From positions 1 to 62,706 of the forward strand of contig CAZNGL010000003.1 in assembly GCA_964572405.1 (NCBI GenBank): a DNA stretch of 62,706 bases, read 5' to 3'. Under the pieces are notes generated by a model. It had not been told where the DNA came from, ran no database searches, and worked only from the letters and a program-made list of their open reading frames with translations. Positions 7,066 to 52,495 of this stretch are shown piece by piece. Source of the DNA: an uncultured Bacteriovoracaceae bacterium (lineage in GTDB: Bacteria; Desulfobacterota; Desulfomonilia; UBA1062). Position 1 is the stretch's first letter. Each line of letters opens with the position of its first letter. The position numbers were made by a program, and so were the translations under genes.

Positions 7066-7872
7066 TCAACCGCCTATCCCGTTCGAGCGCTGCCGTGCGT
7101 ACACCGCAGCCCCCAGGGCCCCTATGATCTGCGGGTCCACCGGGAGCTCGGCCACCTCCATGGCGAGCATCTTCGAGAGTGCTTTGATGAGGCCCCTGTT
7201 CTTGGCGCACCCGCCCGTGACCGTCACCCTGGGGCGCATGCCGATGCGCTTGAGCAGGGTGAAGCACCGCTTGGACACGGCGGCCTGGATGCCGGCCGCG
7301 ATCTCCTCGGGCGGGTTCCTTTTCGCCAGGAGGCTTATGACCTCGCTCTCGGCGAACACGCTGCACTGGGAGGTTACGGGGATCACCCTGCCCGCCTTCA
7401 GGGAGAGCGCGGAGAACGCCTCGATGTCCATGCGGAAAACCCTGCTCATGGCCTCGTAGAACCGTCCCGTGCCTGCGGCGCACTTGTCGTTCATGGCGAA
7501 CTCTAAAACCGCTCCCCTGTCGTCGATGGCGATGGCCTTCACGTCCTGTCCACCGATGTCCACGATGGTCTTTATGTCAGGACTGCAGGAGAACGTCCCC
7601 ATGGCATGGCAGCTGATCTCGGAGATGTTCTCGCTGGCAAAGGGCACCTCGTTCCTGCCGTACCCGGTACCGATGAGATAGGCCAGGTTCTTGTGGCCGC
7701 CGAGCCCCGGGACCTTCGCGCAGGCCTGCTCGAGGGCGAGCCTGGATGTCAGCTCCGGGTCGATCTCGCTCGGGATGATCACGGACGCCTGCATGGCGCC
7801 CCCCTCGTCGATGATGACCGCCTTGCCCGTGGTGGACCCTACGTCGCACCCGCCGAAGTATCTTTGTGCCAT
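7066..7872 (-). CDS. ATP-dependent acyl-CoA dehydratase/reductase activase (HgdC/BcrAD family)
   Basis: ASKHA motifs GCDVGSTTGK, GTGYGR, DIGGQD and the Fe-S cysteines NDKCAAGTG and SQCSVFAESE. Confidence 0.92.
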   Translation of the reverse strand: MAQRYFGGCDVGSTTGKAVIIDEGGAMQASVIIPSEIDPELTSRLALEQACAKVPGLGGHKNLAYLIGTGYGRNEVPFASENISEISCHAMGTFSCSPDIKTIVDIGGQDVKAIAIDDRGAVLEFAMNDKCAAGTGRFYEAMSRVFRMDIEAFSALSLKAGRVIPVTSQCSVFAESEVISLLAKRNPPEEIAAGIQAAVSKRCFTLLKRIGMRPRVTVTGGCAKNRGLIKALSKMLAMEVAELPVDPQIIGALGAAVYARQRSNGIGG

Positions 7873-9443
7873 ATCCTCGCCTCCCCGTCTTCTCTGTGGG
7901 TTCCCCGCGCCTGGTGATCGAGTCGTTCCGCCTTCATGACATTCTCCATGAAGTGTTCCACCTGCCGCATCATGTTGTCACGGGAGACGATGCGCGGATC
8001 GCTCAGGTCGTAATCCAGGATCAGGAGCGGTATGCCTTTCTCGCGGCACTTCTCGCGCAGGATGCCGTTCATGGCCTGGCCGCTCTTGCATCCCACGTGA
8101 TTGGCCACCCAGACCATGTCCAGGTCGAACTGCTTCACCATGCGGAAGATGTCGTCGAGGTAGTTCTCCGCCGGCCCCCGGGTGTGGCGGACCATGGGGC
8201 CCTGCATGACGACCCTGCTCCAGCCGCGCAGCATGGATTCGGGCGTGGAGGTGTCGATGGGGCCGAGGTGGTTGTAGCTCATGCTGTCGTTCAGGAGGGT
8301 CAGGCCGTAGGTGCGCTCCGCCCAGTTGAAGATGTCCGGGAAGTGGAGAAAGGGCGGATTCCAGCACACCGCCCGATACCGCTCGTTGAGTGTGGCCGGT
8401 AAGTGTTCCTCGAGGTTCTGCCGGGCCAGCTGCACCAGGCGCTCGAAATGTCTCGCCGAATCCTCGCACTCCGGGGTCACGTTGAAGTGCCAGAGATGGC
8501 TCATCCAGACCGCCTCCGAGGCAAGGGGCGCAGGCCTCACCCGGAGCATGTCCCACAGCTCCCGCTCCAGTTCCAGCATGCGATTGCGGTTCTCGCACAT
8601 CCGCCTGAAGAGGTCCCAGTCCATGCGGCCGGTCGTGTGCTTCTCGAGGAACGCGATCATTCCCTTCACGTCTTCGACGAAGAGGTCCACCGCGCGATCG
8701 TTGTAGAAGCGGTACGGCACGTCGAGGCGGTAGACGGGCACGCCGTAGGCGCGCTGGAAGAAGGTGTACGACGCCGCGCCGGCGTCGCAGGGGAGGTTTG
8801 AGCTCACCATGGCGATGCCCTTCGGCAGGTGCCCCTTGAGGACCATGCCCATGGTCGTCTTTGGCAGGCTGCAGGAGTCGGGATTGATCCCCTCGTTCTC
8901 CGCTTCGTCGATGTACTTCAGGCATACCTCCGGGTCCAGCAGGGGCAGCATGATGCCCATGGCCTCGAGCTGGTAGCACCTCAGGCCCATGGCGTGGGCG
9001 ATGTCCGGAGGCACCAGGTCCTCGTTGATGACCAGTCGGTCGGGGTGGAACAGCATCTCCCTGAGCAGTTCCACGACCCCGGCGGTGATGGTGTGCATGG
9101 TCATGCACACCGCCTCGTGATAGCGGCCGGTCCTCCCGGGGAGGATACGCCTCGTGAGGGCGTTCACCTTCTGCAGGGTCAGGATCCACGGGTGCCTGAG
9201 CAAGGTCCGGACGGACCCCACCGGGCCGAAGGCGAGGACGAACTCCATGAGGAACTTCACGATGACCGCATAGTTGAGGGCCCAGTACCTCATGTAGACG
9301 GCCAGGTCTTTCGGATTCCGCGTGCGGACGAGGTATTCCGCAAGGGAATTGTACCAGAGTTTCCTGCCTGTCTCCTTCAGACCGGCGGAAAGGTGTTTCA
9401 TGTCTGCCGTGATGTTCTTCACGCCTCGGGGTCCTCTCTCCAT
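7839..9443 (-). CDS. 2-hydroxyacyl-CoA dehydratase / benzoyl-CoA reductase subunit (HgdA/BcrB type) with N-terminal extension
   Basis: Cys motifs PDSCSLPK, PCDAG and HVGCKS; C-terminal LILDYDLSDPR. Start uncertain (9443 or 9401). Confidence 0.85.
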   Translation of the reverse strand: MERGPRGVKNITADMKHLSAGLKETGRKLWYNSLAEYLVRTRNPKDLAVYMRYWALNYAVIVKFLMEFVLAFGPVGSVRTLLRHPWILTLQKVNALTRRILPGRTGRYHEAVCMTMHTITAGVVELLREMLFHPDRLVINEDLVPPDIAHAMGLRCYQLEAMGIMLPLLDPEVCLKYIDEAENEGINPDSCSLPKTTMGMVLKGHLPKGIAMVSSNLPCDAGAASYTFFQRAYGVPVYRLDVPYRFYNDRAVDLFVEDVKGMIAFLEKHTTGRMDWDLFRRMCENRNRMLELERELWDMLRVRPAPLASEAVWMSHLWHFNVTPECEDSARHFERLVQLARQNLEEHLPATLNERYRAVCWNPPFLHFPDIFNWAERTYGLTLLNDSMSYNHLGPIDTSTPESMLRGWSRVVMQGPMVRHTRGPAENYLDDIFRMVKQFDLDMVWVANHVGCKSGQAMNGILREKCREKGIPLLILDYDLSDPRIVSRDNMMRQVEHFMENVMKAERLDHQARGTHREDGEARIWHKDTSAGAT

Positions 9444-9447
9444 GGTG

Positions 9448-10581
9448 TTATCTGCCCAGACTCTCGATGAACGCCTGCACCCGCGTGCGCAGCTGGCCTT
9501 CTCCGCCCGCGGCATATTCCCGCTCCATCTTCAAAACCGGGATACCCTCCTTCCTGAGTGCGCCGACCAGCGGCATGGTATCCACTCCCCAGAGGTCGCA
9601 GAACTTGATGACCTCGATGACCACCCCGTCCACGCGGAAATCCCTGACCGTGTCGATGATGGTTTGCAGCCGCCGGTCGAAATCCTCCATCATGCGGGGG
9701 CACAGGGTCTTCCTGAAGGTATGTTCCGCAAGGCACCTGATGGGATCGCCCTCGGTCTCCACCGGCGTGAGTCCGGGGATGGACCCGGTGCAGAACCGGT
9801 CGGCCACCACGAGCCCGCCCTGCGATTCGATGATGCCGATGAGTGCGGGGTCGTGGAGGTGCGCCCCCACCAGCATCAGGCGCGCGCGGCAGGGGAAGGT
9901 CCCCTCCCGGTTTTGAATCTCTGCGTAGAGCGACTCGATGGCCGGGAGGACAAGATCCTTGGGCGATACGAGGCCCGCCATGACGATCCGGTGGAAGTCG
10001 GCGCCGGTGATGGGGGGGTGCTCATTCTTTCTCAGGTCGCCGATGAGGAGCACGGCACGGCAGAACCTGTTCCACTCCTCGATGGCCCGTGCCACCGAGG
10101 CGGCGCCCGTGTCGATCCCGAAATGGTCCGAGAGCCTTGTTGCGAGCATGCCGAGTTCAGCGGCCAGCCACTGCGTGGTGAAAGGGGTCTCCTTGCGGGG
10201 TACGTCGATGACATGGCTGAATACGGGCTTCCTGAGGTATTCCAGGTTGTCGATGAAGCGCTGCATGTGCGCGCACGACGGGACGTGGACCCACCCCTGG
10301 ATCAGGTCGTACCGGTTGTCAAAGGCGAATTCGAGGAGACTGCGCGTGTAGGAGCAGGTCAGCGTGGACATGTAGATGTCTGCGATCTCGGTGCCCGCCA
10401 CGCCCGGCGCCCTCATGCGCACCGGGAAGAGCCTGTCCGCCATGAGCAGGGGCTCGGGCACGAAGGAGCAGGAATACCCGATGGCCATGCGGCCTTCCTG
10501 CGATGCCTGTTCCACGAGGCGGTTCAGGGGGTATTCCAGGAGCTCCTCGAAGAAGCGCACGGTCTCGGCCGGCATGGTCAT
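9448..10581 (-). CDS. 2-hydroxyacyl-CoA dehydratase / benzoyl-CoA reductase subunit (HgdB/BcrC type)
   Basis: GYSCSFVPE, TCSYTRS, SCAHMQR, DRFCTG, KFCDLWG and QLRTRVQAFIE motifs. Confidence 0.88.
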   Translation of the reverse strand: MTMPAETVRFFEELLEYPLNRLVEQASQEGRMAIGYSCSFVPEPLLMADRLFPVRMRAPGVAGTEIADIYMSTLTCSYTRSLLEFAFDNRYDLIQGWVHVPSCAHMQRFIDNLEYLRKPVFSHVIDVPRKETPFTTQWLAAELGMLATRLSDHFGIDTGAASVARAIEEWNRFCRAVLLIGDLRKNEHPPITGADFHRIVMAGLVSPKDLVLPAIESLYAEIQNREGTFPCRARLMLVGAHLHDPALIGIIESQGGLVVADRFCTGSIPGLTPVETEGDPIRCLAEHTFRKTLCPRMMEDFDRRLQTIIDTVRDFRVDGVVIEVIKFCDLWGVDTMPLVGALRKEGIPVLKMEREYAAGGEGQLRTRVQAFIESLGR

Positions 10582-10638
10582 TCCGTGATCCCTCCGGTGC
10601 ATGCCCATCGAGTGGAGCAGGACAGCAGCGCATTCATC

Positions 10639-11421
10639 TCACGCGTCCCCCCGGGGCGACAGCCCCATGGTCTCGAGGATGCCCGCAACGACGCTCAGGC
10701 TGGGCGAGGTGTCCGGTATGCCCGCCAGGGACTCCCCCCTGAAATCGAAGTCCCGGATGAGGTCGTCCTCCAGGACCCAGCCGTAGATGGGCAGGCCGGT
10801 CCGTGTCCTGATTTCGTCCACCTCCGAAGGCTTTCTCACCCGGTTGAGCACCAGGCCCATGCTCCTGAAGTCAACCGCCCCGTTGTCCCTCGCCACGTGG
10901 GCTATGGCGTCTGCCACGCCGATGCCCTTGACCGAGGTGTCCGAGATGATCACCAGGTGGTCCACGGTCTTCATGACCCTCCGGTTTATCTGCTCCACAC
11001 CCGCCTCTCCGTCGATGACCACCACGTCGAACGATCCGGCCAGGTCCGCGAGGATGTCCTTGAGCAGCGCGTTCACCCTGCAGAAGCAGCCCTCGTCCTC
11101 GGGCCTCCCGATGGCGAGCATGGCAAACCCGTCCTGCTCGTGCAGGGCGTCGAACATCTCGTAGTCGAGCTGCCTGACGGTCTGTTGTGCGGCCTGCTGC
11201 TCGCCCTTCCTGACCCGGGATATGAGATCCCTTCTGATGTCGTCCACCGTCTTGTGGACCGTCACCCCCAGGGCCACGGCCAGGCCGCAGGCCGGGTCCG
11301 CGTCGATGGCCAGGACCTTCCTGTGTTTCCCCCTGCCCAGGATCTTCACCATCATGGCGGCCACGGAGGTCTTTCCCACGCCCCCCTTGCCGCACAGCGC
11401 TATCCTTTTCGTATCATGCAT
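10639..11421 (-). CDS. cooC: CooC/AcsF-like nickel-insertion P-loop ATPase
   Basis: Deviant Walker A GKGGVGKT, DADP, metal-binding GCFC motif and IDGEAGVEQINR, all characteristic of the CooC family. Confidence 0.8.
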   Translation of the reverse strand: MHDTKRIALCGKGGVGKTSVAAMMVKILGRGKHRKVLAIDADPACGLAVALGVTVHKTVDDIRRDLISRVRKGEQQAAQQTVRQLDYEMFDALHEQDGFAMLAIGRPEDEGCFCRVNALLKDILADLAGSFDVVVIDGEAGVEQINRRVMKTVDHLVIISDTSVKGIGVADAIAHVARDNGAVDFRSMGLVLNRVRKPSEVDEIRTRTGLPIYGWVLEDDLIRDFDFRGESLAGIPDTSPSLSVVAGILETMGLSPRGDA

Positions 11422-12151
11422 GCATGGCCTCCCTGTTCTTGTGCTGCATCGATCGTCTCATCGCCTTGAGCTGGTCCGCGTCCGAACATACATCCTGGTA
11501 TTCGCAGGACTCACAGTCGGCATCGATCTCCACTGCCATCTTGTCCATGGCAGCGACGATCCTGGCGGCAGGCCCGACGATGTCCCGCAGGGCCCTCACG
11601 TCCGCGGGGGAGGAGGTGACCACGACCACCTCGATGGACCGGACGTAATCCCTGTCGCCAAACAGGTGCATGACCGACGAGGCAAGATCGCGCGCCGAGA
11701 ACCCGGACCGTATGGCCTCGGCGCTGACCCTGCACCACTCCTTCTGGTACTGGGGCACCGCCCTGATCATGAACCCCTTCAGGTCGAGGTCGTAGCGGAG
11801 CAGGTCCATGTCCCGGTGCCGCTCGTAGGTGTTCTCCTCCGTGAAGCCTTCCACCCCGGCGAGGACCACCTTGCCGAAGGGCAGGGCCCGCTTGCGGGTC
11901 TCGGTGAAATCGGGACCTATAAGGGTGATGCGTCCGTCCGCGACCTGGCGCGGGTCGCCCGTCCACAGGAGACTGCTCACGGATTCCACGTCCGGGCTCC
12001 CCAGCTCAATGCCCAGGTCCTCCTTCATGACGATGCCCCTTCGGCCCCCGGCCGGCCAGGAGGGAAGGGGGGGCCCGGACCAGCAGCGTTTTTCCGGCAT
12101 CGCTTCGACGAAGTCCCGTACCCGGCGGATGATGTCGGTGAAGAGCTCCAT
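11414..12151 (-). CDS. Stand-alone acetyl-CoA synthase (AcsB/CdhC) middle-domain-like protein with C-terminal CxxC-x5-C
   Basis: ELGSP...DGRITLIGPD...LPFGKVV...ER...W-x-RVS-x-EA-x3-GF...VVVT pattern matches my recollection of the ACS beta-subunit central domain. Only 245 aa; ends CESCEYQDVC. Confidence 0.6.
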   Translation of the reverse strand: MELFTDIIRRVRDFVEAMPEKRCWSGPPLPSWPAGGRRGIVMKEDLGIELGSPDVESVSSLLWTGDPRQVADGRITLIGPDFTETRKRALPFGKVVLAGVEGFTEENTYERHRDMDLLRYDLDLKGFMIRAVPQYQKEWCRVSAEAIRSGFSARDLASSVMHLFGDRDYVRSIEVVVVTSSPADVRALRDIVGPAARIVAAMDKMAVEIDADCESCEYQDVCSDADQLKAMRRSMQHKNREAMHA

Positions 12152-12154
12152 GGC

Positions 12155-12940
12155 CTATGCCCTGCCCCCCGCCATTTCGCGCGCCATGACCGCGGCCCCC
12201 AGGGCCCCGATGATCTGCGGGTCCACGCCCACCTTCAGCAGCTTCACCCCCAGGGCCTCCTCGAGGGCCGTGAACATGCCCGGGTTCTTCGCCACCCCGC
12301 CGGTCATGGTGATCTCGCCCTCGAGCTCGATGCCCCGGGCCAGCGAGGCGACCCGGTGGGCCATGGCCCGGTGGAGCCCTGCAACGATGTCCGCGAGGTC
12401 TTTCCCGTCGTTGATGAGCGAGATGATCTCGGTCTCGGCAAAGACCACGCACTGGTTGGAGATGGTGACCGGCGAGCGCGCGGCCGCCGAGAGGTTTCCC
12501 ATGTCGTCCAGGGGGATACCCATGGCGCCCGCCATGATCTCCAGAAACCTCCCGGTCCCTGATGCGCACTTGTCGTTGTAGGCGTAGCGGACGACGCCGC
12601 CCTGATCGTCGAGCCTGATGGCCTTGGCATCCTGGCCGCCTATGTCGATGACCATGCGCACCTTCGGAAGGAGCCACCGCGCCCCCCTGCCATGGCAGGC
12701 GATCTCCGACTCCACGGCCGTGGCAAAGGGTATGGAGTTCCGCCCATACCCCGTGCCCATGCAGCATGCGATGTCGTCCATGGCGAGGCCGGCCAAGGAG
12801 AGCGCGCCCTCCATGACTTCCCGGGCCGAGTCTTCCGGCTCGGGCCGGGCACGGATGACATGCGAGGCGATGATGTTGCCGTTGTCCATGATGACCGCCT
12901 TGGCGCTGAGCGAGCCTATATCGCATCCCGCTGCTATCAT
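12155..12940 (-). CDS. ATP-dependent activase (HgdC/BcrAD family), second of a tandem pair
   Basis: ATG 12940 (MIAAGCDIGSLSAK) overlaps the upstream stop (ATGA); NDKCASGTG and SNQCVVFAETE motifs. Confidence 0.9.
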   Translation of the reverse strand: MIAAGCDIGSLSAKAVIMDNGNIIASHVIRARPEPEDSAREVMEGALSLAGLAMDDIACCMGTGYGRNSIPFATAVESEIACHGRGARWLLPKVRMVIDIGGQDAKAIRLDDQGGVVRYAYNDKCASGTGRFLEIMAGAMGIPLDDMGNLSAAARSPVTISNQCVVFAETEIISLINDGKDLADIVAGLHRAMAHRVASLARGIELEGEITMTGGVAKNPGMFTALEEALGVKLLKVGVDPQIIGALGAAVMAREMAGGRA

Positions 12941-13725
12941 TTCGACGCTCCTTCCATCTTCTCCCTGGCACAGACGGCGGCCCCCAGGGCCCCGATGATC
13001 TGCGGGTCCACGCGGAGCCTGCGGATGCCGGTGCCCAGGAGCTTTTCCAGTGCGGCCACCACGCCCGTGTTCTTTGCCACGCCGCCGGTCATGCACACGT
13101 CCCGCTCGATGCCCACGCTCCGGGCGAGGATCGCCACCCTTCCCGCCATGGCGCGGTTGACTGCCGAGGCGATGTCCGCCCTGGACCTCTTCGCGTTCAG
13201 GTGGTGGATCACCTCGGCCTGGGCCCACACCGTGCAGGTGGAGGCCAGCTGGAGGGGTTCCCCTGCCTGGGATGAGAGCTTCCCGAGCTCGTCGAGGCTC
13301 ACGCCAAGGATCTTGGCCATGACCTCCAGGAACCTTCCCGTTCCGGCCGCGCACTTGTCGTTGGTGAAGAACTTCACCACGTTCCCCCCGGCGTCCAGTT
13401 TGATGGCCTTGCAGTCCTGGCCGCCGATGTCGATGACGGTCCTCACCGAGGGCATGAGCCAGTGCGCACCCTTGGCGTGGCATGCGATCTCGGAGACGGC
13501 CTTGCCCACGAAGGGTATGCGCTCCCTCCCGTAGCCGGTGCCCACGCAGAACGCGACGTCCTTCATGGCCAGCCCCGACGTGGCCAGAGCCCTGTCCATG
13601 ACCTCCCGGGCGGAGTCCTCGGGTCTGAAGGTGGAGCTGATGACCGCGTGGCCGAGGATACTCTTCTGGTTGAGTATCACCGCCTTGGTGGTGAGCGAGC
13701 CGACGTCGCATCCGGCAACGATCAT
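12937..13725 (-). CDS. ATP-dependent activase (HgdC/BcrAD family), first of a tandem pair
   Basis: GCDVGSLTTK, GTGYGR, NDKCAAGTG and STCTVWAQAE motifs; AAAGGAGGA RBS. Confidence 0.92.
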   Translation of the reverse strand: MIVAGCDVGSLTTKAVILNQKSILGHAVISSTFRPEDSAREVMDRALATSGLAMKDVAFCVGTGYGRERIPFVGKAVSEIACHAKGAHWLMPSVRTVIDIGGQDCKAIKLDAGGNVVKFFTNDKCAAGTGRFLEVMAKILGVSLDELGKLSSQAGEPLQLASTCTVWAQAEVIHHLNAKRSRADIASAVNRAMAGRVAILARSVGIERDVCMTGGVAKNTGVVAALEKLLGTGIRRLRVDPQIIGALGAAVCAREKMEGASK

Positions 13726-13779
13726 GGGTTGGTCCTCCTTTTCATCGTATATTCACGCACAGCCGCTCCATGAGATCCT

Positions 13780-14016
13780 CTACAGGGTCATGCTGATGGT
13801 CGCCCCGGCCCTGATCCGCTGGGCATAGAGCCTGCAGCGTTCCTTGAGCACGTTCATGTCGGTCGTGCGCTCGATGTGAGCCAGGGCCGGGAGGGCGGCC
13901 TCCCTGAAGAGGGTGAGGGCGTCGATGGCTCGCTGGCGTTCCACCAGCATCCGCCGGGCGTCCAGCGCGATGTCGCGGATGACCTCGATGGCGATGGCAT
14001 CATTCCTCGCGTCCAT
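13780..14016 (-). CDS. Small hypothetical protein (78 aa)
   Basis: GGAGGTG RBS before ATG; fills the gap between the dehydratase subunit and activase genes on the same strand. Confidence 0.7.
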   Translation of the reverse strand: MDARNDAIAIEVIRDIALDARRMLVERQRAIDALTLFREAALPALAHIERTTDMNVLKERCRLYAQRIRAGATISMTL

Positions 14017-14055
14017 GGATCACCTCCGGGTGAACGGTTATCGGTACGGATGCAT

Positions 14056-15459
14056 TCATGACAGGATCCCCCTCAGGTGAAGGAACTCGCTCATCTTGTC
14101 CATGGCCGCGTCCCAGGACTGCACCCGGTCGTCGAAGGAATCCGAGTACATGATGAGGGCCGGGATGCCGCGGCGCTCCAGGTCCCGGGCATAGGACTTC
14201 ACCATGCCCCAGGTGTTCCTGCACCCGATGGTGCCGAAGTATGCAACGAAATCCGCGCTCAGGAGTTTTGACATGACGAGCGTGTCGTCCAGCCACATGT
14301 TCGGGGCGTCGTACGGCCCGCGGATGGACTTCACCATGGGCATGCGCGAGTTCTGTATGGCCAGGGTGTCGATGAGGTCGTCCATGCTGCCCGTGCGTAT
14401 GCGGAACACGGCATCCTGGTGCTCTCCCGCGTACGCGGCGCCCTCCTCCCAGAAGGAGCTGAGGATGCACCCGAGATGCGAGATCTCCTGCCTGTCGAGG
14501 AAGGACCAGAAACGCATGTCCGTGGTATAGTGGTCGATGTACGAGAAGAAGCCGCGGGCCCTCTCCCTGCCGGAGCCGGTTCCGGCCCTTCCTTCAGCCG
14601 CATTGGCCCTGACCTGCTTCAGCATGGCCCTGAGCAGCTCGGTGTAGTCCCTTGTCCCGCCCATGAGGAAGTTGCCCGAGTAGAGGAACATGGTGAAGAT
14701 CCCCGGCACGGGGGAGGGCACGATCCTCTGGAGCTCGGTGAACTCGTTGATGAGCTCGGCCTGCATCGCGAGCTCTGCCACCACCTCCCTGAGGCGGTCC
14801 TCGTCGAGCTTCCTGCCCGTCTGCTCCTCCAGGAATCCGACCAGGCTCCAGAAATCCCTGCGGTGGAACTCCCGGGCCCGTTCGTCGGTGAGGGTGGGGG
14901 GGAAACAGAGCTGGTGGAAGGGGATGTCCAGGTATGCGGAGGCGAATGCGTACGAGTTTGCATTGGTGTCGCAGATGCCCGGCGAGTCGCACACGATCAT
15001 GTCGGGCCTGACCCCGAGACCCGCCAGATAGGCGCCCAGGGCGCCGCGCTGGGATGAGCATGAGGTCTCGGTGAACCCGACCTCGCAGCAGTAGTCCAGG
15101 AACTCCCCGGTTCCCCGCTGGAGGATGAAGGTGCCCAGTACGGTCATGGGTTCCAGCAGGAGAGGCACCACGTCGAACGCGTACAGGATGGGCGGCGCGA
15201 AGCAGAACGTGGTCATGGCCACCTTCTTGCCCTCGTCGTGGGCGCGGATGACCCTGTTCAGGTACCTGCCGAGAGCCTTCATGAGCAGGACGCCCGCCTC
15301 CCCCTGGCTGATGATCGCATCCAGGGAGTCCCGGAAATGCGGGATGAGCGAAAGCAGCGACTCGTACTCCTTCTTCGTCCCGTCGTAGGTGAACGATGCA
15401 TTCTGGATGATGGTCCAGATGGACCAGTCGTAATGATATTCCCTCGTCTCCCTTCTCAT
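14056..15459 (-). CDS. 2-hydroxyacyl-CoA dehydratase / benzoyl-CoA reductase subunit (HgdA/BcrB type)
   Basis: ETSCSSQR, GICDTN and IGCRNTW motifs; C-terminal YSDSFDDR. Confidence 0.85.
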   Translation of the reverse strand: MRRETREYHYDWSIWTIIQNASFTYDGTKKEYESLLSLIPHFRDSLDAIISQGEAGVLLMKALGRYLNRVIRAHDEGKKVAMTTFCFAPPILYAFDVVPLLLEPMTVLGTFILQRGTGEFLDYCCEVGFTETSCSSQRGALGAYLAGLGVRPDMIVCDSPGICDTNANSYAFASAYLDIPFHQLCFPPTLTDERAREFHRRDFWSLVGFLEEQTGRKLDEDRLREVVAELAMQAELINEFTELQRIVPSPVPGIFTMFLYSGNFLMGGTRDYTELLRAMLKQVRANAAEGRAGTGSGRERARGFFSYIDHYTTDMRFWSFLDRQEISHLGCILSSFWEEGAAYAGEHQDAVFRIRTGSMDDLIDTLAIQNSRMPMVKSIRGPYDAPNMWLDDTLVMSKLLSADFVAYFGTIGCRNTWGMVKSYARDLERRGIPALIMYSDSFDDRVQSWDAAMDKMSEFLHLRGILS

Positions 15460-16589
15460 GCGATCCTCTCCATGAACGCATCGATGCGCATCTTGATCCT
15501 TCCCGTCTCCACCAGGGGTCCGTATTCGCGTTCCATGCGCATGCAGGGGACGCCCGAGGCCTCCAGGTCCCGCTCGAAGATGCCGTTCTCGGAGCCGTGC
15601 AGGTCACAGAACCGGATGTTCTGGAGGATGACGCCGTCCACGCGGGCCTCACGCGCCAGCTCCCGGATGTAGGCGAGTCTTTCCCGGTAGCAGCCGAACA
15701 TGCGGGGACAGAACTTGTGGCTCAGGTAACGCTTCGCCAGGGCCTCGAAGGGATCCGCCTCTTCGTCCACCAGGTCGCGGTAGGACCTGGAACCGAAGCA
15801 CATGGTATCGCTCACCACCACGCCTCCGGAGGACTCGATGAGCCTGATGAAATCCAGGTCGTCGCTGGTGCTGCCCACCACCATGAGGCGTTTTCTGCCG
15901 CCAGTCACGGCAGGAGCCTTCTTCAGACCCTTCAGGATCTCCTTCAGCTCCCTGGTATAGTCTTCCCGGGGCATGGCAAACCCGGCCAGCACGATCGCCG
16001 CCGCATCCTCCCCGGTCAGGGGTGAGCCAGGGGAAGCCCTCAGTGCATCGAGCTCCATGAGGAGCCTACGGCCCTGGTTGTAGAGCCTGATGGATTTTTT
16101 CAGCGACGCGGTGGACACGCTTACCCCGAAGTGTTCTTGGAGGCGGTTCGAGAAGATCCGCAGCTCGTCCGTATACCACGTGATGCTGTAGTCCTCCACC
16201 TTGTGGGGGACGCCCAGGTAGTGGAAGAACCCCGGCACCCTGCCCGGGATGTCCTGGCCTGCCTTTCTCCAGCACTCGTCGAGCCTCCGCATGGAATCGC
16301 ATCCGTTCACGATGACGGCACCGTCGAGGAAGGCGTAGTCGCCCTGGCCGGCCAGCTGGAGTATGCACTTGGGGAAGCTGCAGATCACCGGACCGAAGTA
16401 GGTGTCGCCGATGGACAACGTGGTGGTGTTGATGCCCCTGAGCCGGAAGGGCAGCATGCCCGCGGCATGGATGATCTCGTCGGGCACGAAGGTGCATGGG
16501 TAACCGATGACCTTTCCCCCCGCATCCTTCCACTGCCGCAGGTAGGTGTTGCCGATGGATCGCGCGATGTCCCTCATGGCATCCATCAT
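15456..16589 (-). CDS. 2-hydroxyacyl-CoA dehydratase / benzoyl-CoA reductase subunit (HgdB/BcrC type)
   Basis: GYPCTFVPDEI, ICSFPK, NGCDSMRR, DTMCFG, RFCDLHG and MRIDAFME motifs. Confidence 0.88.
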   Translation of the reverse strand: MMDAMRDIARSIGNTYLRQWKDAGGKVIGYPCTFVPDEIIHAAGMLPFRLRGINTTTLSIGDTYFGPVICSFPKCILQLAGQGDYAFLDGAVIVNGCDSMRRLDECWRKAGQDIPGRVPGFFHYLGVPHKVEDYSITWYTDELRIFSNRLQEHFGVSVSTASLKKSIRLYNQGRRLLMELDALRASPGSPLTGEDAAAIVLAGFAMPREDYTRELKEILKGLKKAPAVTGGRKRLMVVGSTSDDLDFIRLIESSGGVVVSDTMCFGSRSYRDLVDEEADPFEALAKRYLSHKFCPRMFGCYRERLAYIRELAREARVDGVILQNIRFCDLHGSENGIFERDLEASGVPCMRMEREYGPLVETGRIKMRIDAFMERIA

Positions 16590-17794
16590 GATTCACCCCC
16601 TGCACACAGCGGTGCGCCGTTCCGTGACGGCACGGCCGCGTCCAGGATCGGCCGCAGCGCCTCGATGACCTCGGGCACGATCCAGGCGGCCGCCGCCCTG
16701 ATCTCCTCGGTGTCCAGGGAATCGGCCACGCTGGTGATGAAGGAGGAAAAGACCTCGGGCCTGACCTCGTGGATGCCGTTGAGCACCCGCGCAAGGGTGT
16801 TGAGGGAATTCGCCATCTCGTAGGTGTCGAGGTCGGAGAGGCCCTGCGCAACCGACCCGGCCAGGGTCTCCCGGTCGAATTCCTCGAACATGCGGGTCCT
16901 CCGCGAGAAGGCCCTGATGGCAGGCGACTTCAGGGAACCGAGGGCACGCACCATTTCGAGCACGAGGTCTGGATGTTCCCTCAGCGCATCCGCCAGGGCA
17001 CAGGCAGCGGCCTCCCTGTCTTCCGCCAGTGCGACGCGGGCCTTCTTCAGGAGGACGGGGTCGACGAGCGGCAGGCCCTCCTCGAGCAGCGCGGTGAGGT
17101 AGACCTGGAAAAGGGGCCTGCCTGCCCTGGCAAGGAGGAGGTTGCCCGTATGGACGCGCCGGATGAGCTCGCTCACCGAGTTCGCCAGACGGGCGATCTC
17201 CCCGGCATCGAGCCTCCGCACCAGCGAGAGCAGGAGGTCCGCCAGGAGGTCGGGCCCCACCTTCTTCTCGATGGGCTGCAGGAGGGTTCTCACTGAGCTG
17301 ATCCCGGTGTTGACCAGGGCGAGCAGGGTGCCCAGGATACTCCCTGCCTTGGCGGGGTAGCTCCAGAGGTGCTCGTTGAAGGCCTCCAGCGCCTCGATGA
17401 CGCGAGCCCTCGATTTCTCCGCCATCTCCCGGATCTCACCGAAGTCGGTGCTCCTGAGGAAGCCGTGTATGGCCTCCCCGTGCATGGCCGCTCCGCCGGC
17501 AGGGGCCGCTGCCTGTTCGGCATTCACCGTGCGGGCCCACGCGGTGACCAGCGTCCCCACATCGGCCGCCATGCCCCCGTCGTGCCTGGCCGGAGGGGTA
17601 TTGCCCAGTCTGGACGCGACCCACAGGGCGGGGGCTGCGAGCCTTTTCCTGAAGCCCTTCCCATCCGCCCAGCCGCAGATGAGGTCTTTTGCCACCTCCG
17701 AGACCAGGGCCCTGGCTCCCGCAGACCGCATGGTCCTGCCGATGATGCGGGCCAGGGCCCGGGTGCCGGCCGTCTGGTGATCCGTGCTATTCAT
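16586..17794 (-). CDS. Hypothetical all-alpha protein (402 aa), paralogous to 18482..19132 and 19129..19560
   Basis: Translationally coupled on both sides; repeated P-x2-L/F...[VL]D-x2-E[LI] helical motif. Confidence 0.75.
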   Translation of the reverse strand: MNSTDHQTAGTRALARIIGRTMRSAGARALVSEVAKDLICGWADGKGFRKRLAAPALWVASRLGNTPPARHDGGMAADVGTLVTAWARTVNAEQAAAPAGGAAMHGEAIHGFLRSTDFGEIREMAEKSRARVIEALEAFNEHLWSYPAKAGSILGTLLALVNTGISSVRTLLQPIEKKVGPDLLADLLLSLVRRLDAGEIARLANSVSELIRRVHTGNLLLARAGRPLFQVYLTALLEEGLPLVDPVLLKKARVALAEDREAAACALADALREHPDLVLEMVRALGSLKSPAIRAFSRRTRMFEEFDRETLAGSVAQGLSDLDTYEMANSLNTLARVLNGIHEVRPEVFSSFITSVADSLDTEEIRAAAAWIVPEVIEALRPILDAAVPSRNGAPLCAGGES

Positions 17795-18485
17795 TGTGCC
17801 CCCCTGTCTTGTCTTTGAGCATCTCTTCCAGGGCCCTTCTCCCGGCCTCTGTCATGTGGGTCTCGAACATGAGGTGGCTCATGGTGGTGAGCGTCGCAAT
17901 GGCCTCCTCGCGGGTGAATTTCTCCTCCATGAGGAAGCTGTGACCGAGGTGCATGGTCATGCCCACCACGGCATAGGCCATGGTGATGGGGTTCACGCCC
18001 TCGATGACCCCCATGTCCAGCCAGCTCTGGATGTCCTCGGCAAGGTCCTGGGCGATGTCGCTGTAGTGCTTCCAGATGGTGACATCCATCTCCTCGTCCA
18101 CGCCGAAGCTGCCGCGGAGCACCATGAGGAACTGCTGGCGGTGGGAGGTGATGTAGTCGAAGTAGGCGCCGTAGCTCTGATTGAGCTTGTCCACCCTGTC
18201 TCCGTGGTCCCAGATGTTCACCGGCTCCCTGAGTTTCCTGATGCGCAACCGCAGCTCCTCCAGGTTCCGGTTGGTGATCTGCCCGAAGAGATCCCGCTTG
18301 TCCTTGAAGTAATTGTAGAAGGTTCCCGCCGACATGCCCACGGCCTTGACGATGTCCATGACCTGGGTGTTGTGGTAGCCGTGCCTGCTGAAGAGCTCTT
18401 CGGCGGCCTCCATGATCATGTCCCGGATGAGCTGCTTCTTCTTTTCCAGGAGTTTGTTCACGGGTGTTGCCCTCATGCCCTTCAT
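17787..18485 (-). CDS. TetR/AcrR family transcriptional regulator
   Basis: HTH AAEELFSRHGYHNTQVMDIVKAVGMSAGTFYNYFKDKRDL; ATG 18485 overlaps the upstream TGA. Confidence 0.92.
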   Translation of the reverse strand: MKGMRATPVNKLLEKKKQLIRDMIMEAAEELFSRHGYHNTQVMDIVKAVGMSAGTFYNYFKDKRDLFGQITNRNLEELRLRIRKLREPVNIWDHGDRVDKLNQSYGAYFDYITSHRQQFLMVLRGSFGVDEEMDVTIWKHYSDIAQDLAEDIQSWLDMGVIEGVNPITMAYAVVGMTMHLGHSFLMEEKFTREEAIATLTTMSHLMFETHMTEAGRRALEEMLKDKTGGHNE

Positions 18486-19132
18486 ATGCCGAGCCTCTTT
18501 CTCACCCTGCCCCGCACCAGGTTCCAGGTCCAGGACGCCAGGCGCCACTTCTGGTCGAGGAGGGCATTGGCCATGGTGGTGGCGGCCTTTGCCAGTTCTT
18601 CCCCGTCGACGTTTTCCATGACTGTGGCGATGAACCTGCTGAAGGCCTGCGGGTCGTCCCGGGTGATGCTGTTCACGAACCGCGAGAATGCATTGATGGC
18701 GCCCGCTTTGATCTTGGGTCCTTCGGAGAGAAAGGCCCGGATAAGGGTTGTTCCCAATTCAGGCGAGGCCTTGATCATCGCGGACGCGAGACCTGCCCAT
18801 TCCTTGCCGCACTCCCTCAAGGCCTCCCTGTCGATGTCCTCCGCGAGGCTGACCATGAACGACTTCAGGAGCTCGGGTGGGTACTTGTCCTTCAGTTGGG
18901 TCGCCAGCTCGGTGAGCGCGCCTGTCACGCTGTTGATGAACACGGGAAGGCCCCCGGAAACCCCGAAGAAGACCTCCGGGTCGTCCCCGAGGAGTGTCTT
19001 TACCGCCTCCCTGCCCGAGCCGGGATGCAGGGAGTTCATCTTCACCCGGATGAGGTCCTTTGCAAGGGTGGAGCGCATGAGGGCCTTCAGGATACCCCCC
19101 TGGTTCTGTGTGGATGGCCCGGCCTGTCTCAT
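18482..19132 (-). CDS. Hypothetical all-alpha protein (216 aa)
   Basis: ATGA overlaps on both sides; clear similarity to 19129..19560 (DPEV...YPP-x-LL...EDID/EDVD). Confidence 0.75.
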   Translation of the reverse strand: MRQAGPSTQNQGGILKALMRSTLAKDLIRVKMNSLHPGSGREAVKTLLGDDPEVFFGVSGGLPVFINSVTGALTELATQLKDKYPPELLKSFMVSLAEDIDREALRECGKEWAGLASAMIKASPELGTTLIRAFLSEGPKIKAGAINAFSRFVNSITRDDPQAFSRFIATVMENVDGEELAKAATTMANALLDQKWRLASWTWNLVRGRVRKRLGI

Positions 19133-19560
19133 GTGCCCTCCTTTCCCCTCAGGGCCTGTTCCTCCACGGCCTTCGCAAAGGCGCCGAAGACGGGCGCCAG
19201 GTCACTGCCGAGGTCCCTGAGATCGTGGATCAGGCATGCGAGGGTCTGGCGGTCCACGTCTTCCAGGAGGGATTCCACCATGCCCGCGAGCAGGGGCGGC
19301 GGGTACGTGCGCCGGACCTGCACCACGAGCTCCGCTGCGATCTTGATGAAGCAGTTGGCGATCACGGGGAGAGCGCCCGTCACGGCCAGGGGCACCTCGG
19401 GGTCCTTCCCCAGGATGGTCCGGACGAGCCCGGGACCGGCCTCAGGATCGATGTTCCTGAGAAACAGGCGCAGGCTGTCCTTGAAGGATGCGCTGGCCAG
19501 GAGCTCTTCGGCCACCCTCGTCCTGCCTTCGATCAGTCCCGTGTTCGCGGCTTCGTCCAT
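19129..19560 (-). CDS. Hypothetical all-alpha protein (143 aa)
   Basis: GAGGTG RBS; paralog of the next gene. Confidence 0.75.
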   Translation of the reverse strand: MDEAANTGLIEGRTRVAEELLASASFKDSLRLFLRNIDPEAGPGLVRTILGKDPEVPLAVTGALPVIANCFIKIAAELVVQVRRTYPPPLLAGMVESLLEDVDRQTLACLIHDLRDLGSDLAPVFGAFAKAVEEQALRGKEGT

Positions 19561-19569
19561 GGCATCACC

Positions 19570-20844
19570 TCACAGCGTCTCGCAGTTGAAGAAGTACCGG
19601 GCGGCCTCCATCTGGCAGAGCTGCTTGCCGCCCATCCAGAGCTGCACGATCTTGATGTCGCGCCAGTGCTTCTCGATGTCCCAGTCCCGGTCTGCGCCGA
19701 ACAGGCCGAGCACGTCCATGGCCTTGCCGAAGTTCTCCACGGCGCGATCGGAGATGAAGTCCTTGATGTTGCGGATCCTCCCCACCACGTCCTCGGAAAT
19801 CAGGGGCTTGCCGTGGGGCTTGTTCCTCCGGTCCCCGATCATGGCCGCCTCGTGTCCCAGGATGCGGCAGATGTCGATATCGCCCGCGATGCGGCCGATG
19901 ATGCCTGCCACGGCATCGTTCTCCTTGAGAGGGGTATTGTTGTAGGTGCGGGTGGACACGAACTCGTAGAGCCGCTCGTAGAGGTTCAGCATGGCGCCGG
20001 TGAGGAAGGCGCAGCTCATGACCTGGCCGAAGGAGATGAGCTGGTAGAAGGCCTCGGCGTCCCTGCCGGGACCGTGGGCCCGGTACCAGGAGGGTACGCG
20101 GACGTCCTCGAACCAGATGTCGCCGTTCTTGTCCGCCGCCATGCCGGCCTTCTCATAGGCGCCGCCCTGGGTCACGCCGGGCAGGTCCGCAGGGACGAAG
20201 ATGAAGGCGAAGTCCCTGGGGTCGCTGGACCCGGGCTTCGTGGTGCAGGGCACGCCGAAGAGGCTGGCCACGCCGCCCGAGTTGGTGGGCCAGAGCTTGT
20301 GACCGTTGATGACCCACTCGTCGCCGTCGAGACGGGCCGTGGTGCGGATGGTCCTGCCGCGGAGCAGCCCGAGGTTCTCGATGTCGGCCCCCCCCTGGGG
20401 CTCGGTCATGGCGTTGGCCGCGAACACGGCCTTGTCCGCCTTGCAGAACAGGGGCGCGAACTCGGCGATGAGGCGCTCGTTCTTGTAGGGCTCCACCATG
20501 ACGACGAGGAGCGGCCAGAAGGTCACGGCCAGGGCAACGGCCATGCCCGTGTCGGCCCTGCCGAGCTCCTCGCAGAGCATGTACCCGCCGCGGAAGGCGT
20601 AGTCGGAATCGGCCAGGCCCCAGCCCCCGTATTTGAGGGGGAAGAGCGATTTCTGGAGTCCGAGCTCTGCCATGAGCCTGTCGAAGGCCGGTTCGATGAG
20701 GTTGTGGTCCTTCCAGTCCTCGTCGTATCTCCGGCGCTGAGGCATGACCCACTCCTCCAGGTGCTTCCTGAGGAGGCGCCTGAAGTGCCGGTCAAAGGGG
20801 GATATGTATTCTTCCGGACGGGAGAATTCGTCGAAATGCATCAT
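19570..20844 (-). CDS. Acyl-CoA dehydrogenase-fold flavoprotein (atypical active site)
   Basis: NAMTEPQGGAD, NGHKLWPTN, FEDVRVP and EKHWRDIK motifs; the canonical C-terminal YEG is replaced by WMG. Confidence 0.88.
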   Translation of the reverse strand: MMHFDEFSRPEEYISPFDRHFRRLLRKHLEEWVMPQRRRYDEDWKDHNLIEPAFDRLMAELGLQKSLFPLKYGGWGLADSDYAFRGGYMLCEELGRADTGMAVALAVTFWPLLVVMVEPYKNERLIAEFAPLFCKADKAVFAANAMTEPQGGADIENLGLLRGRTIRTTARLDGDEWVINGHKLWPTNSGGVASLFGVPCTTKPGSSDPRDFAFIFVPADLPGVTQGGAYEKAGMAADKNGDIWFEDVRVPSWYRAHGPGRDAEAFYQLISFGQVMSCAFLTGAMLNLYERLYEFVSTRTYNNTPLKENDAVAGIIGRIAGDIDICRILGHEAAMIGDRRNKPHGKPLISEDVVGRIRNIKDFISDRAVENFGKAMDVLGLFGADRDWDIEKHWRDIKIVQLWMGGKQLCQMEAARYFFNCETL

Positions 20845-20859
20845 GGCTTCATCACCTCC

Positions 20860-22098
20860 TCAGATCTCGGAACAGTCGTAGAAGAAGCGGGCCGTGTCCA
20901 TCTTCACCGGCGCTTCAGCGCCCACCCCGCACAGCAGGGAACCGATGGTCTTCACATCCCTCCAGTGTTTCTCCACGTGCCACTCCTTGGCGTAGCCCGC
21001 GGACCCCATGAGCTCCATGCCCCGGTCCATGGCCCTGAGCGCCCCCCGGACGGCCCGCAGGCCGATCATCCCGGCATAGGCGAAGGTGCGGCCCATGTCC
21101 GAGCGCCACGATCCGGCCTGCGCCGCCATGATGCCCGCCAGATCGTAGAGGAGGAGCTTGGCCACGGCGATCTCCTCGGCGACGTCGGCAAGGACCGACG
21201 CGCACAGGGGGTTCTCCTTCAGGGTGGTGCCTCCCTTGATGACCCGGTGGTCGCTCCAGTCGGCGAGGAGTTCGAAGAAATTCGTCGCGGCCCCGACGCC
21301 CACGCCGGCCAGGAGCAGGTTGAGCCAGGCGTAGAGACCCGCTATGGTCTCTTCCCCTTCCAGGACGCCATCGCCGGGCACCGGCGCGTCGTAGAGGTCT
21401 ATCTGGGCGTTGCCGCAGGCATTGAGTCCGGTCATGAGGATGGGAGAGCCCCGCTTCACTCCCTGTGCGTCTCCCGGGACAATGGCGAGGCACGGCGTAG
21501 AGTCTCCCTTGGCGCACACCACGCAGAAGAGGTCGGCCATGCCGCCTGCGACGAGGGGCCGGAGGCCTTTGCCGTTCAGCGTGAAGCCGTCTTCTGATTG
21601 TCTTGCACTGACCAGGATGGACCTTCCGAAGAACAAAGGTGTCTGCATGCCGGTGAAGCCCGGGCCGGTCAGGATGAGGGCCGGGGTCCTCACTGTCTCG
21701 TCCGCAGAGATGCCTGCCAGGATACTGCACCGCCCCTCCCCGTTGTCGTGCGCCCCGGCGGCAAGGGACAGCGCCCAGGTTGCTGCGGAAAGGAAGCCCA
21801 TGGAGGCGTCGGCGCGGCCTGTCTCGCAGGCGAGGGTGAGCAGGGCAGGGGCTTTTGCAGGGCTGTTCCAGCCGAACCCGCCGAGGTCTGAAGGGATGGC
21901 GAGCTTCTGCAGGCCGATGTCCATGGAGAGCTTCTTCCTCTTTTCCGCAAAGAGCCGATCATAGCCCTCCCGGTATTCCATGCGTTTTGAGACGATCTCC
22001 TTGTCGGCCCACTGCCTGAGAAGCCGCACGACGCTCAGGGATTCCTCGTCCATGGCGTGCTTCGGGTAGAGAAAAAGTTCGTCGAGATTCCTGCTCAT
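20860..22098 (-). CDS. Divergent acyl-CoA dehydrogenase-fold protein (putative partner subunit)
   Basis: C-terminal GMELMGSAGYAKEWHVEKHWRDVK is conserved, but the N-terminal FAD motif is degenerate (LILTGPG for ALTEPG). GAGGAGG RBS before ATG 22098. Confidence 0.82.
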   Translation of the reverse strand: MSRNLDELFLYPKHAMDEESLSVVRLLRQWADKEIVSKRMEYREGYDRLFAEKRKKLSMDIGLQKLAIPSDLGGFGWNSPAKAPALLTLACETGRADASMGFLSAATWALSLAAGAHDNGEGRCSILAGISADETVRTPALILTGPGFTGMQTPLFFGRSILVSARQSEDGFTLNGKGLRPLVAGGMADLFCVVCAKGDSTPCLAIVPGDAQGVKRGSPILMTGLNACGNAQIDLYDAPVPGDGVLEGEETIAGLYAWLNLLLAGVGVGAATNFFELLADWSDHRVIKGGTTLKENPLCASVLADVAEEIAVAKLLLYDLAGIMAAQAGSWRSDMGRTFAYAGMIGLRAVRGALRAMDRGMELMGSAGYAKEWHVEKHWRDVKTIGSLLCGVGAEAPVKMDTARFFYDCSEI

Positions 22099-22274
22099 AG
22101 GTCCTCCTCGCAAGAGGGATAGGATGGATATGCCGGTGTGTGTTCGTACCTGGAATGAGGGCAGGGAGAAAGGGACAGAAACTCACGGGCATGACGGGTA
22201 TCCCCACACAGGTCCTTCACGGCAAACCCCCTTTCAGGGTAATCAAAACACCAGGCCGACACGAACCCTCTTGA

Positions 22275-22290
22275 TAATGAGGATTCATTA
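22275..22290. promoter_or_regulatory. Palindromic operator TAATGA-GGAT-TCATTA, candidate site for the operon-encoded TetR
   Basis: Perfect 6-bp inverted repeat at or just downstream of the predicted +1. The assignment to TetR is inference. Confidence 0.6.
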
Positions 22291-22296
22291 CCATGA

Positions 22297-22325
22297 ATGA
22301 TAATTACTATTACTCTCCCTGTCAA
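22297..22325 (-). promoter_or_regulatory. Sigma70 promoter of the 16-gene operon: TTGACA-N17-TATCAT
   Basis: Minus strand: -35 TTGACA at 22325-22320, 17-nt spacer, -10 TATCAT at 22302-22297, in an AT-rich island. Confidence 0.8.
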
Positions 22326-22452
22326 GGGCAAAGATGAGCGATTTGCCCGACCCCTGCCGCATAGGCGGCCATGTGCCCGATTCGTGCAGGGTTCTTGAGG
22401 GGTAATGAGAGGATGATGCCAGGGAGCTGTGGTGCCTCAGGCGAGGTAAAGG

Positions 22453-22614
22453 TCAGGAGCGTGCGTTCTTCACCAGGATATACACGGCGATACCCGCCAC
22501 GAGCGTTCCCATGGAAAGGCTCATCGTGTCCTTTCTCATGGCGCCGTAGGCAATGTCCGCGAGTCCGAGCAGGAAAAACAGGGCAGGCGGCACGGTCGCC
22601 GCAGGGAGTCTCAT
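22453..22614 (-). CDS. Small (53 aa) two-TM membrane protein, not in the supplied ORF track
   Basis: Manual translation MRLPAATVPPALFFLLGLADIAYGAMRKDTMSLSMGTLVAGIAVYILVKNARS*; GGAGG RBS 8 nt upstream. Confidence 0.65.
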   Translation of the reverse strand: MRLPAATVPPALFFLLGLADIAYGAMRKDTMSLSMGTLVAGIAVYILVKNARS

Positions 22615-22639
22615 GGGCCGGACCCCTCCGGTTTCTGCA

Positions 22640-22912
22640 TCAGAGGATCCCGGCTATCCATCGCTCGGCATCCTCGGGACTTGTGACATAGTGCACCGGG
22701 CGGTCCCGGATATCCTCCACCCTTGTGCAGGCGCTCGAGCATCCGCTCACGATCAGGACCATCTGTGCATCCTCGCTGTCCGCTGGAATGAACTCCACCA
22801 TGCCTGCGAGCCGTTCCCTGATGGTTTCGACCATCTCCACCCGGTCATAGCCTGCCCGGCACCCACCGCAGTACTTGAGCCCGACCCTTATCTTTCCTTG
22901 TCGATGCCGCAC
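22640..22912 (-). CDS. Small Cys-motif protein (KYCGGC...GCSSAC)
   Basis: C-terminal part of ORF 22640..23122 (IRVGLKYCGGCRAGYDR...VSGCSSAC). The start (GTG 22912, overlapping the abfD end) is uncertain. Confidence 0.6.
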   Translation of the reverse strand: MRHRQGKIRVGLKYCGGCRAGYDRVEMVETIRERLAGMVEFIPADSEDAQMVLIVSGCSSACTRVEDIRDRPVHYVTSPEDAERWIAGIL

Positions 22913-52429: not shown

Positions 52430-52495
52430 AATGGACTTGCCTTTCACGGCCGTGGCATGTATGGTATCAGGAGAACACTGTGCAAGGAGACGTGT

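Follow-up and report, generated by a model that had tools for sequence, protein, structure and literature searches.

In the textbook mechanism of acyl-CoA dehydrogenases (ACADs), a glutamate acts as the base and a hydride is transferred to flavin adenine dinucleotide (FAD). Among the closest described systems, the alpha2beta2 ACADs of steroid catabolism divide this work between two chains: in ChsE4–ChsE5, the flavin ring and substrate sit in alpha and the ADP-ribose in beta, and the alpha subunit of these steroid enzymes retains the catalytic Glu (PMC11153573). The base of Ch1DH is Asp91 on a broken E helix, with Thr363 and Asn241 at the positions of MCAD Glu376 and Thr255, and 3-sulfinopropionyl-CoA desulfinase is cited in the same paper as an ACAD-fold enzyme with no base (PMC9293079). 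Here, we analyse two adjacent ACAD-fold genes, beta and alpha, carried by a 62,706-nucleotide stretch of DNA (the window) from an uncultured Bacteriovoracaceae bacterium of the GTDB class Desulfomonilia (UBA1062; GenBank assembly GCA_964572405.1, contig CAZNGL010000003.1). Conservation across orthologues gives solid support to the conclusion that their products are real, selected ACAD-fold proteins, which most likely form a two-subunit flavoprotein, and by alignment or offset mapping none of the three known ACAD base positions is acidic in alpha.

In architecture, the pair is like the steroid enzymes ChsE4–ChsE5, ChsE1–ChsE2 and IpdE1–IpdE2, in which adjacent, diverged ACAD genes encode one subunit for the flavin ring and substrate and another that supports the ADP-ribose. 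However, the steroid alpha has the Glu where alpha of the window has Met/Leu404 and Gly273; the hosts here are strict anaerobes, ATP-driven iron–sulfur (Fe-S) enzymes replace the steroid genes, and genes for helical partner proteins are attached. Moreover, in our tree the alpha/beta duplication lies inside a different, already Glu-less ACAD radiation. Because its alpha keeps the catalytic Glu, the steroid family is only an architectural analogue; the parallel with it that a first-pass annotation of this DNA had drawn from the bare sequence therefore stands for the probable subunit architecture and falls for the catalytic residue (PMC11153573).

Ch1DH is likewise an ACAD of anaerobes without either classical Glu, is among the best structural matches of alpha (template-modelling (TM) scores 0.79/0.88) and functions beside the benzoyl-CoA reductase pathway. 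Unlike alpha–beta, it is a homotetramer with the replacement base Asp91, in the region of which alpha has Trp110–Pro111. The desulfinase, AcdDPN7, is another ACAD-fold FAD protein that lacks the catalytic Glu, and it shows no dehydrogenase activity, but it is homomeric, has an unrelated genomic context and is no more similar to the pair than other ACADs are. MCAD, SCAD and Bcd have the same three-domain fold and FAD-ring motifs as alpha; they differ in that their Glu376 is replaced by Met and their Arg256 by Gln, Leu or Asn in alpha, and in the distinctive EKHWRDxK...ARYFFxC C-terminus that alpha and beta have in common.

No NCBIfam equivalog came near its cut-off for alpha or beta, the best reaching 97.5 bits against 650. 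Three specific identities were tried and rejected: the desulfinase (NF042439; cut-off 600, with alpha scoring 45.3 bits and beta 26.4), an SfnB/DszC-type monooxygenase (TIGR04022; 18.7 and 21.4 bits against 431), and the pimeloyl-CoA dehydrogenase PimC/PimD (TIGR03204/TIGR03203; 36.4 and 25.4 bits against 624 and 653, with partial coverage). Literature searches that covered the operon context and, for anaerobes, ACADs that are heteromeric or lack the Glu turned up no description of the alpha–beta family. Judged by its sequence, the pair would represent a heteromeric, base-less ACAD of anaerobes with helical partners, for which neither a describing paper nor a curated family was found.

Loss of acidic residues at the known base positions

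Alpha was aligned by HMMER to three solved ACADs (7szv, 2pg0 and 3mpi), and residue numbering was taken from a MAFFT alignment of human MCAD with alpha, beta and 64 relatives, the MCAD reference being identical to PDB 1ege over all 396 residues. Both alignments agree in placing Met404 of alpha on the catalytic Glu and Gly273–Gln274 on the helix-G [E/T/G]-Arg pair. At the position of MCAD Glu376, alpha orthologues carry Met (57 of 64) or Leu (7 of 64), and beta carries Leu389 (68/75). At MCAD Thr255, which is the Glu site of IVD and LCAD, Gly273 is found in all 64 alpha sequences and Leu259 in beta, while the adjacent MCAD Arg256 corresponds to Gln, Leu or Asn at position 274 of alpha and to Asn260 of beta. 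Neither subunit has Glu or Asp at the catalytic position of the J–K loop (MCAD Glu376) or of helix G (IVD Glu254/LCAD Glu261), the replacements being fixed across the 64 alpha and 75 beta orthologues, and the Arg that partners the catalytic base is missing from alpha as well, a condition that holds in all the phyla represented. The motifs around the base positions are invariant among alpha orthologues, and because the substitutions are fixed in this way, they reflect neither chance nor decay.

These results bear directly on the first-pass annotation, which had read W-M-G in place of the usual C-terminal Y-E-G and Gly-Gln at the helix-G position. The strings it relied upon (IVQLWMGG and ISFGQV in alpha, TIGSLLCG in beta) are all present in the minus-strand open reading frames (ORFs), and both alignments recover the two substitutions as Met404 and Gly273–Gln274. 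Its proposal that neither classical position holds Glu or Asp is borne out and can be extended to the region of the Ch1DH base. When Asp91 was placed on alpha by offset, from the numbering in PMC9293079 and the alignment ranges of 7p98 rather than from a printed alignment, it fell at residues 106–111, which comprise Gly/Ala/Leu/Met, Val, Thr, Phe, Trp and Pro and include no acid; Trp110 is present in 64 of 64 sequences, and Trp110–Pro111 is invariant in alpha orthologues. Conversely, the premise that every ACAD needs a Glu at one of the two classical positions was too strict, since Ch1DH (Asp91) and, as cited there, 3-sulfinopropionyl-CoA desulfinase (no base) are exceptions (PMC9293079).

An intact flavin site in alpha and its counterpart in beta

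Alpha matches all three Pfam ACAD domains (PF02771, PF02770 and PF00441). Its AlphaFold model, computed with 34 orthologues in the alignment, has a predicted local distance difference test score (pLDDT) of 83.6 and a predicted TM score (pTM) of 0.87, and Foldseek aligned the model to MCAD, SCAD and Ch1DH with TM scores of 0.80–0.89. As modelled, alpha has the full three-domain ACAD fold, with an N-terminal helical, a middle beta and a C-terminal helical domain. Identity to the medium- and short-chain ACADs is about 23%, and alpha retains a pocket of the thioester type. The flavin-ring contacts are all kept: Thr147, Ala/Ser153, Asp154, Trp185, Thr187 and Asn188 are found in 61–64 of the 64 sequences, with MCAD Thr136, Ser142, Trp166 and Thr168 equivalent to Thr147, Ala/Ser153, Trp185 and Thr187, and the FAD-ring motifs read MTEPQGGxDIEN and GHKLWPTN.

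Compared with canonical ACADs, alpha is extended at its N-terminus and carries eight additional residues behind the GxD motif, an insertion that adjoins the Ser142–Asp143 motif at the pantetheine entrance. MCAD Gln95 and Glu99 at the base of the acyl pocket are replaced by Ala102 and Gly/Ala/Leu/Met106; in long-chain ACADs, the pocket is made deeper by small side chains at these two sites. The small pocket-base residues, together with a palmitate-domain match of the neighbouring helical protein h216 (see below), weakly hint that the substrate of alpha may be bulky or hydrophobic. In addition, an invariant loop, KAGMAADK (alpha residues 232–239; window 20130–20153), stands where canonical ACADs have the motif GxRxSxT. 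No other internal stretch of the model falls below a pLDDT of 50, and the loop may accordingly be a mobile, possibly ligand-gated element.

In beta, Pfam detects only the C-terminal ACAD domains; the whole of the protein can be aligned with ACADs. Alpha and beta are 28% identical throughout, including the EKHWRDxK motif and an ARxFFxC C-terminus. The flavin-ring motif of beta is degenerate, as had been suspected at first reading, with MCAD Thr136, Trp166 and Thr168 replaced by Pro/Thr144, Arg180 and Leu182. The residues through which MCAD contacts the FAD of its neighbouring subunit show the reverse pattern: Arg281 is Arg285 in 75 of 75 beta sequences, as against Arg299 in only 39 of 64 alpha sequences; Gly353 corresponds to Ser366 in beta (72/75) and to the variable position 381 in alpha; and Gln349 corresponds to Glu362 in beta (72/75). 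The conservation pattern solidly supports the conclusion that only alpha binds the flavin ring. Because own-subunit FAD residues are kept in alpha and neighbour-FAD residues in beta, we infer one FAD per alpha–beta pair; most likely, the two chains form an alpha–beta unit, probably alpha2beta2, with the active site in alpha. Synteny, counted in 84 loci by tblastn with the operon proteins, points the same way: in 72 of 73 loci, beta immediately precedes alpha. Together, the split FAD residues and this adjacency lend sequence support to the heteromer that the first-pass annotation had proposed. The fold of a read-through beta–alpha fusion, computed from an alignment of 14 naturally paired rows (the window and 13 loci with in-frame beta–alpha), gave a pLDDT of 73 and a pTM of 0.63.

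A Glu-less ancestry for both subunits

After 1.84 billion representative proteins had been searched, a phylogenetic tree resolved alpha and beta as sister clades inside a broad ACAD radiation marked by TEPxGGx[DN]IE[ND] and [WV]xGG. In most of the other proteins of this radiation (P0124–P0204, all outside the window), the catalytic Glu has given way to Leu, Met, Ile, Val, Pro or Gly, and a few members (P0133, P0134, P0140 and P0192) keep both Glu and Arg. Since the nearest outgroups of alpha and of beta are already Glu-less, beta derives from a base-less ancestor. Ten representatives of the radiation were compared with NCBIfam, and none matched a named family. One member, P0126 (L087:8001-10199), is a lone alpha-like paralogue with 41% identity and WMGG, encoded without any partnering beta; after it come two small genes for SCP2-like (sterol/lipid carrier) proteins, which again hints at a hydrophobic substrate.

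Distribution and conserved gene neighborhood

The alpha–beta family has 241 confirmed matches among about 185,000 species-representative genomes and thousands of metagenome proteins. Relatives at 58–88% identity occur in Desulfomonilia, Smithella and Syntrophales, other Thermodesulfobacteriota, Bacillota, Actinomycetota (Geothermincolia), Spirochaetes and others, and their hosts live as strict anaerobes in digesters, peat and sediment. Wastewater and digester metagenomes contain the window's own sequence; the look-up that placed it there found no RNA runs for the region.

In 68 of 70 loci, the gene that immediately follows alpha encodes a helical protein, and 48 of the 53 loci with enough flanking sequence contain a gene of the 2-hydroxyacyl-CoA-dehydratase/benzoyl-CoA-reductase type (Hgd/Bcr). 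The usual order is beta, alpha, h143, h216, (TetR), h402, HgdB/HgdA, two activases, a mini acetyl-CoA synthase (mini-ACS), CooC and a further HgdB/HgdA, and the same gene order is found in Desulfomonilia, Smithella, Bacillota (a metagenome-assembled genome) and Actinomycetota. Stand-alone beta–alpha–helical modules are also found, in a spirochaete with two separate helical genes and in two other genomes with a fused 383-aa helical protein. Because several genomes carry just beta, alpha and a helical partner, the minimal unit is the pair plus its helical partner.

The helical proteins encoded directly after alpha, h143 and h216, are paralogous (hhalign probability 99.95%), have no Pfam match and are fused into that single 383-aa protein at L085:11290-12441 and L086:11301-12452. 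Against the PDB, the h216 profile gave a weak match to the palmitate-binding helical domain of Aspergillus Afmp4p (5j5k; E 2e-4), and the matches of the h143 profile, to designed repeat proteins and, at E ~0.6, to apolipoprotein E, amount to noise. With h402, they make up three paralogous all-helical proteins (window 16586–19560) built on a repeated D-P-E...P...N...E...P..L..S...D unit, and the C-terminus of h216 is a conserved amphipathic tail rich in Trp and Arg. These proteins may be extra subunits or substrate carriers.

Within the window (Table 1), both genes are on the minus strand, and translation of the same coordinates on the plus strand gives no ACAD. Beta begins with an ATG at 22098 preceded by GAGGAGG. 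The beta stop and the alpha start are separated by 15 nt, a gap that holds the ribosome-binding site GGAGGTG, and the two genes share a frame with one TGA between them. The near-consensus promoter upstream of beta is the sole such site in 19000–22900 (shuffles average 0.4) and is the probable operon start, from which the alpha–beta pair would therefore head a long co-oriented operon. A palindrome lies at this promoter. Beyond the helical genes, the operon continues with TetR (17787–18488), the helical h402, an HgdB/HgdA-like pair, two activase ATPases, a mini acetyl-CoA-synthase domain, a CooC-type ATPase, a second HgdB/HgdA-like pair and an activase.

Table 1. Features of the alpha–beta locus, in window coordinates
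Feature	Position	Strand	Description
Promoter	22297..22325	(-)	sigma-70-like, TTGACA-17-TATCAT; upstream of beta; 11/12 consensus matches
beta gene	20860..22098	(-)	412-aa ACAD-fold protein; degenerate flavin-ring site
alpha gene	19570..20844	(-)	424-aa ACAD-fold protein; FAD-ring site intact
h143	19129..19560	(-)	small all-helical protein, 9 nt after the alpha stop codon; no known domain
h216	18482..19132	(-)	second helical protein; overlaps the end of h143
Remaining co-oriented operon	7066..18488	(-)	assigned from Pfam and NCBIfam matches and synteny across loci

Several other genes of the window deserve mention. Just upstream of the pair, on the same strand, lies a gene of the 4-hydroxybutyryl-CoA dehydratase/HpaB family (AbfD/HpaB-type; 22888–24345). 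Among the 84 loci compared, this neighbour is kept solely in the closest relative, L005, and for this reason it probably stands outside the conserved module. Around 30 kb from the operon, at 52457–54430, a 657-aa fusion of an old yellow enzyme with a pyridine-nucleotide-disulfide oxidoreductase has the architecture of enzymes of the 2,4-dienoyl-CoA reductase/2-naphthoyl-CoA reductase type. Within the operon, a 518-aa ORF (12155–13711) has an activase domain confined to its C-terminal half, and a 262-aa ORF in another frame (12937–13725) overlaps its N-terminal half. Since the corresponding place in relatives is taken by two distinct activase genes, each about 262 aa long, the longer ORF probably arose artificially when ORFs were called.

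Candidate functions of the alpha–beta flavoprotein

The reading that we tentatively prefer, while placing it somewhat short of an even chance, is that the flavin of alpha–beta transfers a hydride or electrons without an enzyme base, in a reaction coupled to the neighbouring ATP-driven radical enzymes. As substrate, alpha–beta would take an acyl thioester, bulky or hydrophobic in nature, that the ATP-driven Hgd/Bcr-type Fe-S enzymes encoded downstream either produce or use up. The alpha-proton of this thioester would not be removed by a classical Glu, and protonation would come from the solvent or from the substrate itself. A broader formulation would make alpha–beta the best-conserved member of the Glu-less ACAD radiation and a new class of flavoenzyme, one that performs base-independent hydride or single-electron transfer to ATP-driven, possibly nickel-dependent Hgd/Bcr-type intermediates and receives a lipid-like substrate from the helical proteins; this we regard as doubtful.

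Several points weigh against base-independent transfer. The ACAD-type reductases Bcd, CarC and acryloyl-CoA reductase use Glu as the proton donor, and we know of no precedent for base-free hydride transfer in the ACAD fold. Genes for an electron-transfer flavoprotein are absent from the operon and the window, and a ferredoxin gene is absent from the operon. At 5 of the 53 loci, the pair and its helical partner have no Hgd/Bcr gene nearby, and the link to Hgd/Bcr enzymes is therefore not obligatory at the locus level. Finally, the invariant alpha residues Glu156 (in the 8-residue insertion), Asp238, Asp310, Asp262 and Tyr254 may include a relocated base.

This last point leads to the alternative that fares best, although we consider it rather unlikely: alpha–beta would be an alpha,beta-dehydrogenase or enoyl-CoA reductase of the ordinary kind, with its base relocated to a fourth, previously undescribed position, such as Glu156–Asn157, Asp238 in KAGMAADKNGD, Asp310 or Tyr254. 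Relocation has happened at least twice among ACADs, to helix G in IVD and LCAD and to Asp91 in Ch1DH (PMC9293079). Several invariant acidic residues of alpha occupy sites that are non-acidic in canonical ACADs, the insertion lies near the pantetheine entrance, and the 232–239 loop is possibly mobile. Nevertheless, Glu156, Asp238, Asn240 and Asp98 of alpha recur in the Glu-keeping relatives P0133, P0134, P0140 and P0192, which argues against a role as replacements for the lost base, and the Arg that would support a base has been lost too.

A non-redox ACAD-fold catalyst of the isomerase, dehydratase or hydrolase type, with FAD in a structural or radical-stabilising role, seems to us improbable. 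The flavin of 4-hydroxybutyryl-CoA dehydratase is a comparable non-redox case, the operon is rich in radical enzymes, and the AbfD/HpaB-type gene lies next to the pair. The desulfinase, as cited in PMC9293079, likewise combines the absence of the Glu with non-redox chemistry. Set against this, the desulfinase model reaches 45 bits where 600 are needed, the AbfD-type neighbour is kept only in L005, and neither subunit conserves a set of cysteines for an Fe-S cluster. A site like that of 4-hydroxybutyryl-CoA dehydratase was accordingly rejected: alpha conserves only Cys200, Cys410 and Cys421, and the cysteines of beta are present in 47–71 of 79 sequences.

It is also quite improbable, in our estimation, that the pair is an inert pseudoenzyme serving with the helical proteins as a scaffold, chaperone or sensor for Hgd/Bcr-type complexes. 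ACAD9, an ACAD-fold protein with a role in complex I assembly, offers a precedent, all known base positions are lost, and non-enzymatic helical proteins directly follow alpha at nearly every locus. Yet the flavin-ring residues of alpha and many of its pocket residues are invariant across phyla, which argues for a working flavin site, and stand-alone modules without Hgd/Bcr neighbours exist. An O2-dependent two-component flavin monooxygenase is highly improbable: the DszC/SfnB-type monooxygenases share the ACAD fold and lack the Glu, and there is a weak SfnB match, but its scores of 18.7 and 21.4 bits fall far below 431, the hosts are strict anaerobes, the operon enzymes are oxygen-sensitive, and the operon has no flavin reductase gene.

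Base-independent transfer coupled to the ATP-driven radical enzymes remains the interpretation that we provisionally retain. Under strong purifying selection, the alpha–beta family has had the base and its supporting Arg removed while the flavin site was kept. Its reaction, once known, would widen the known chemistry of the ACAD fold, and it could show which compound is processed by an anaerobic pathway widespread in digesters, peat and sediments.

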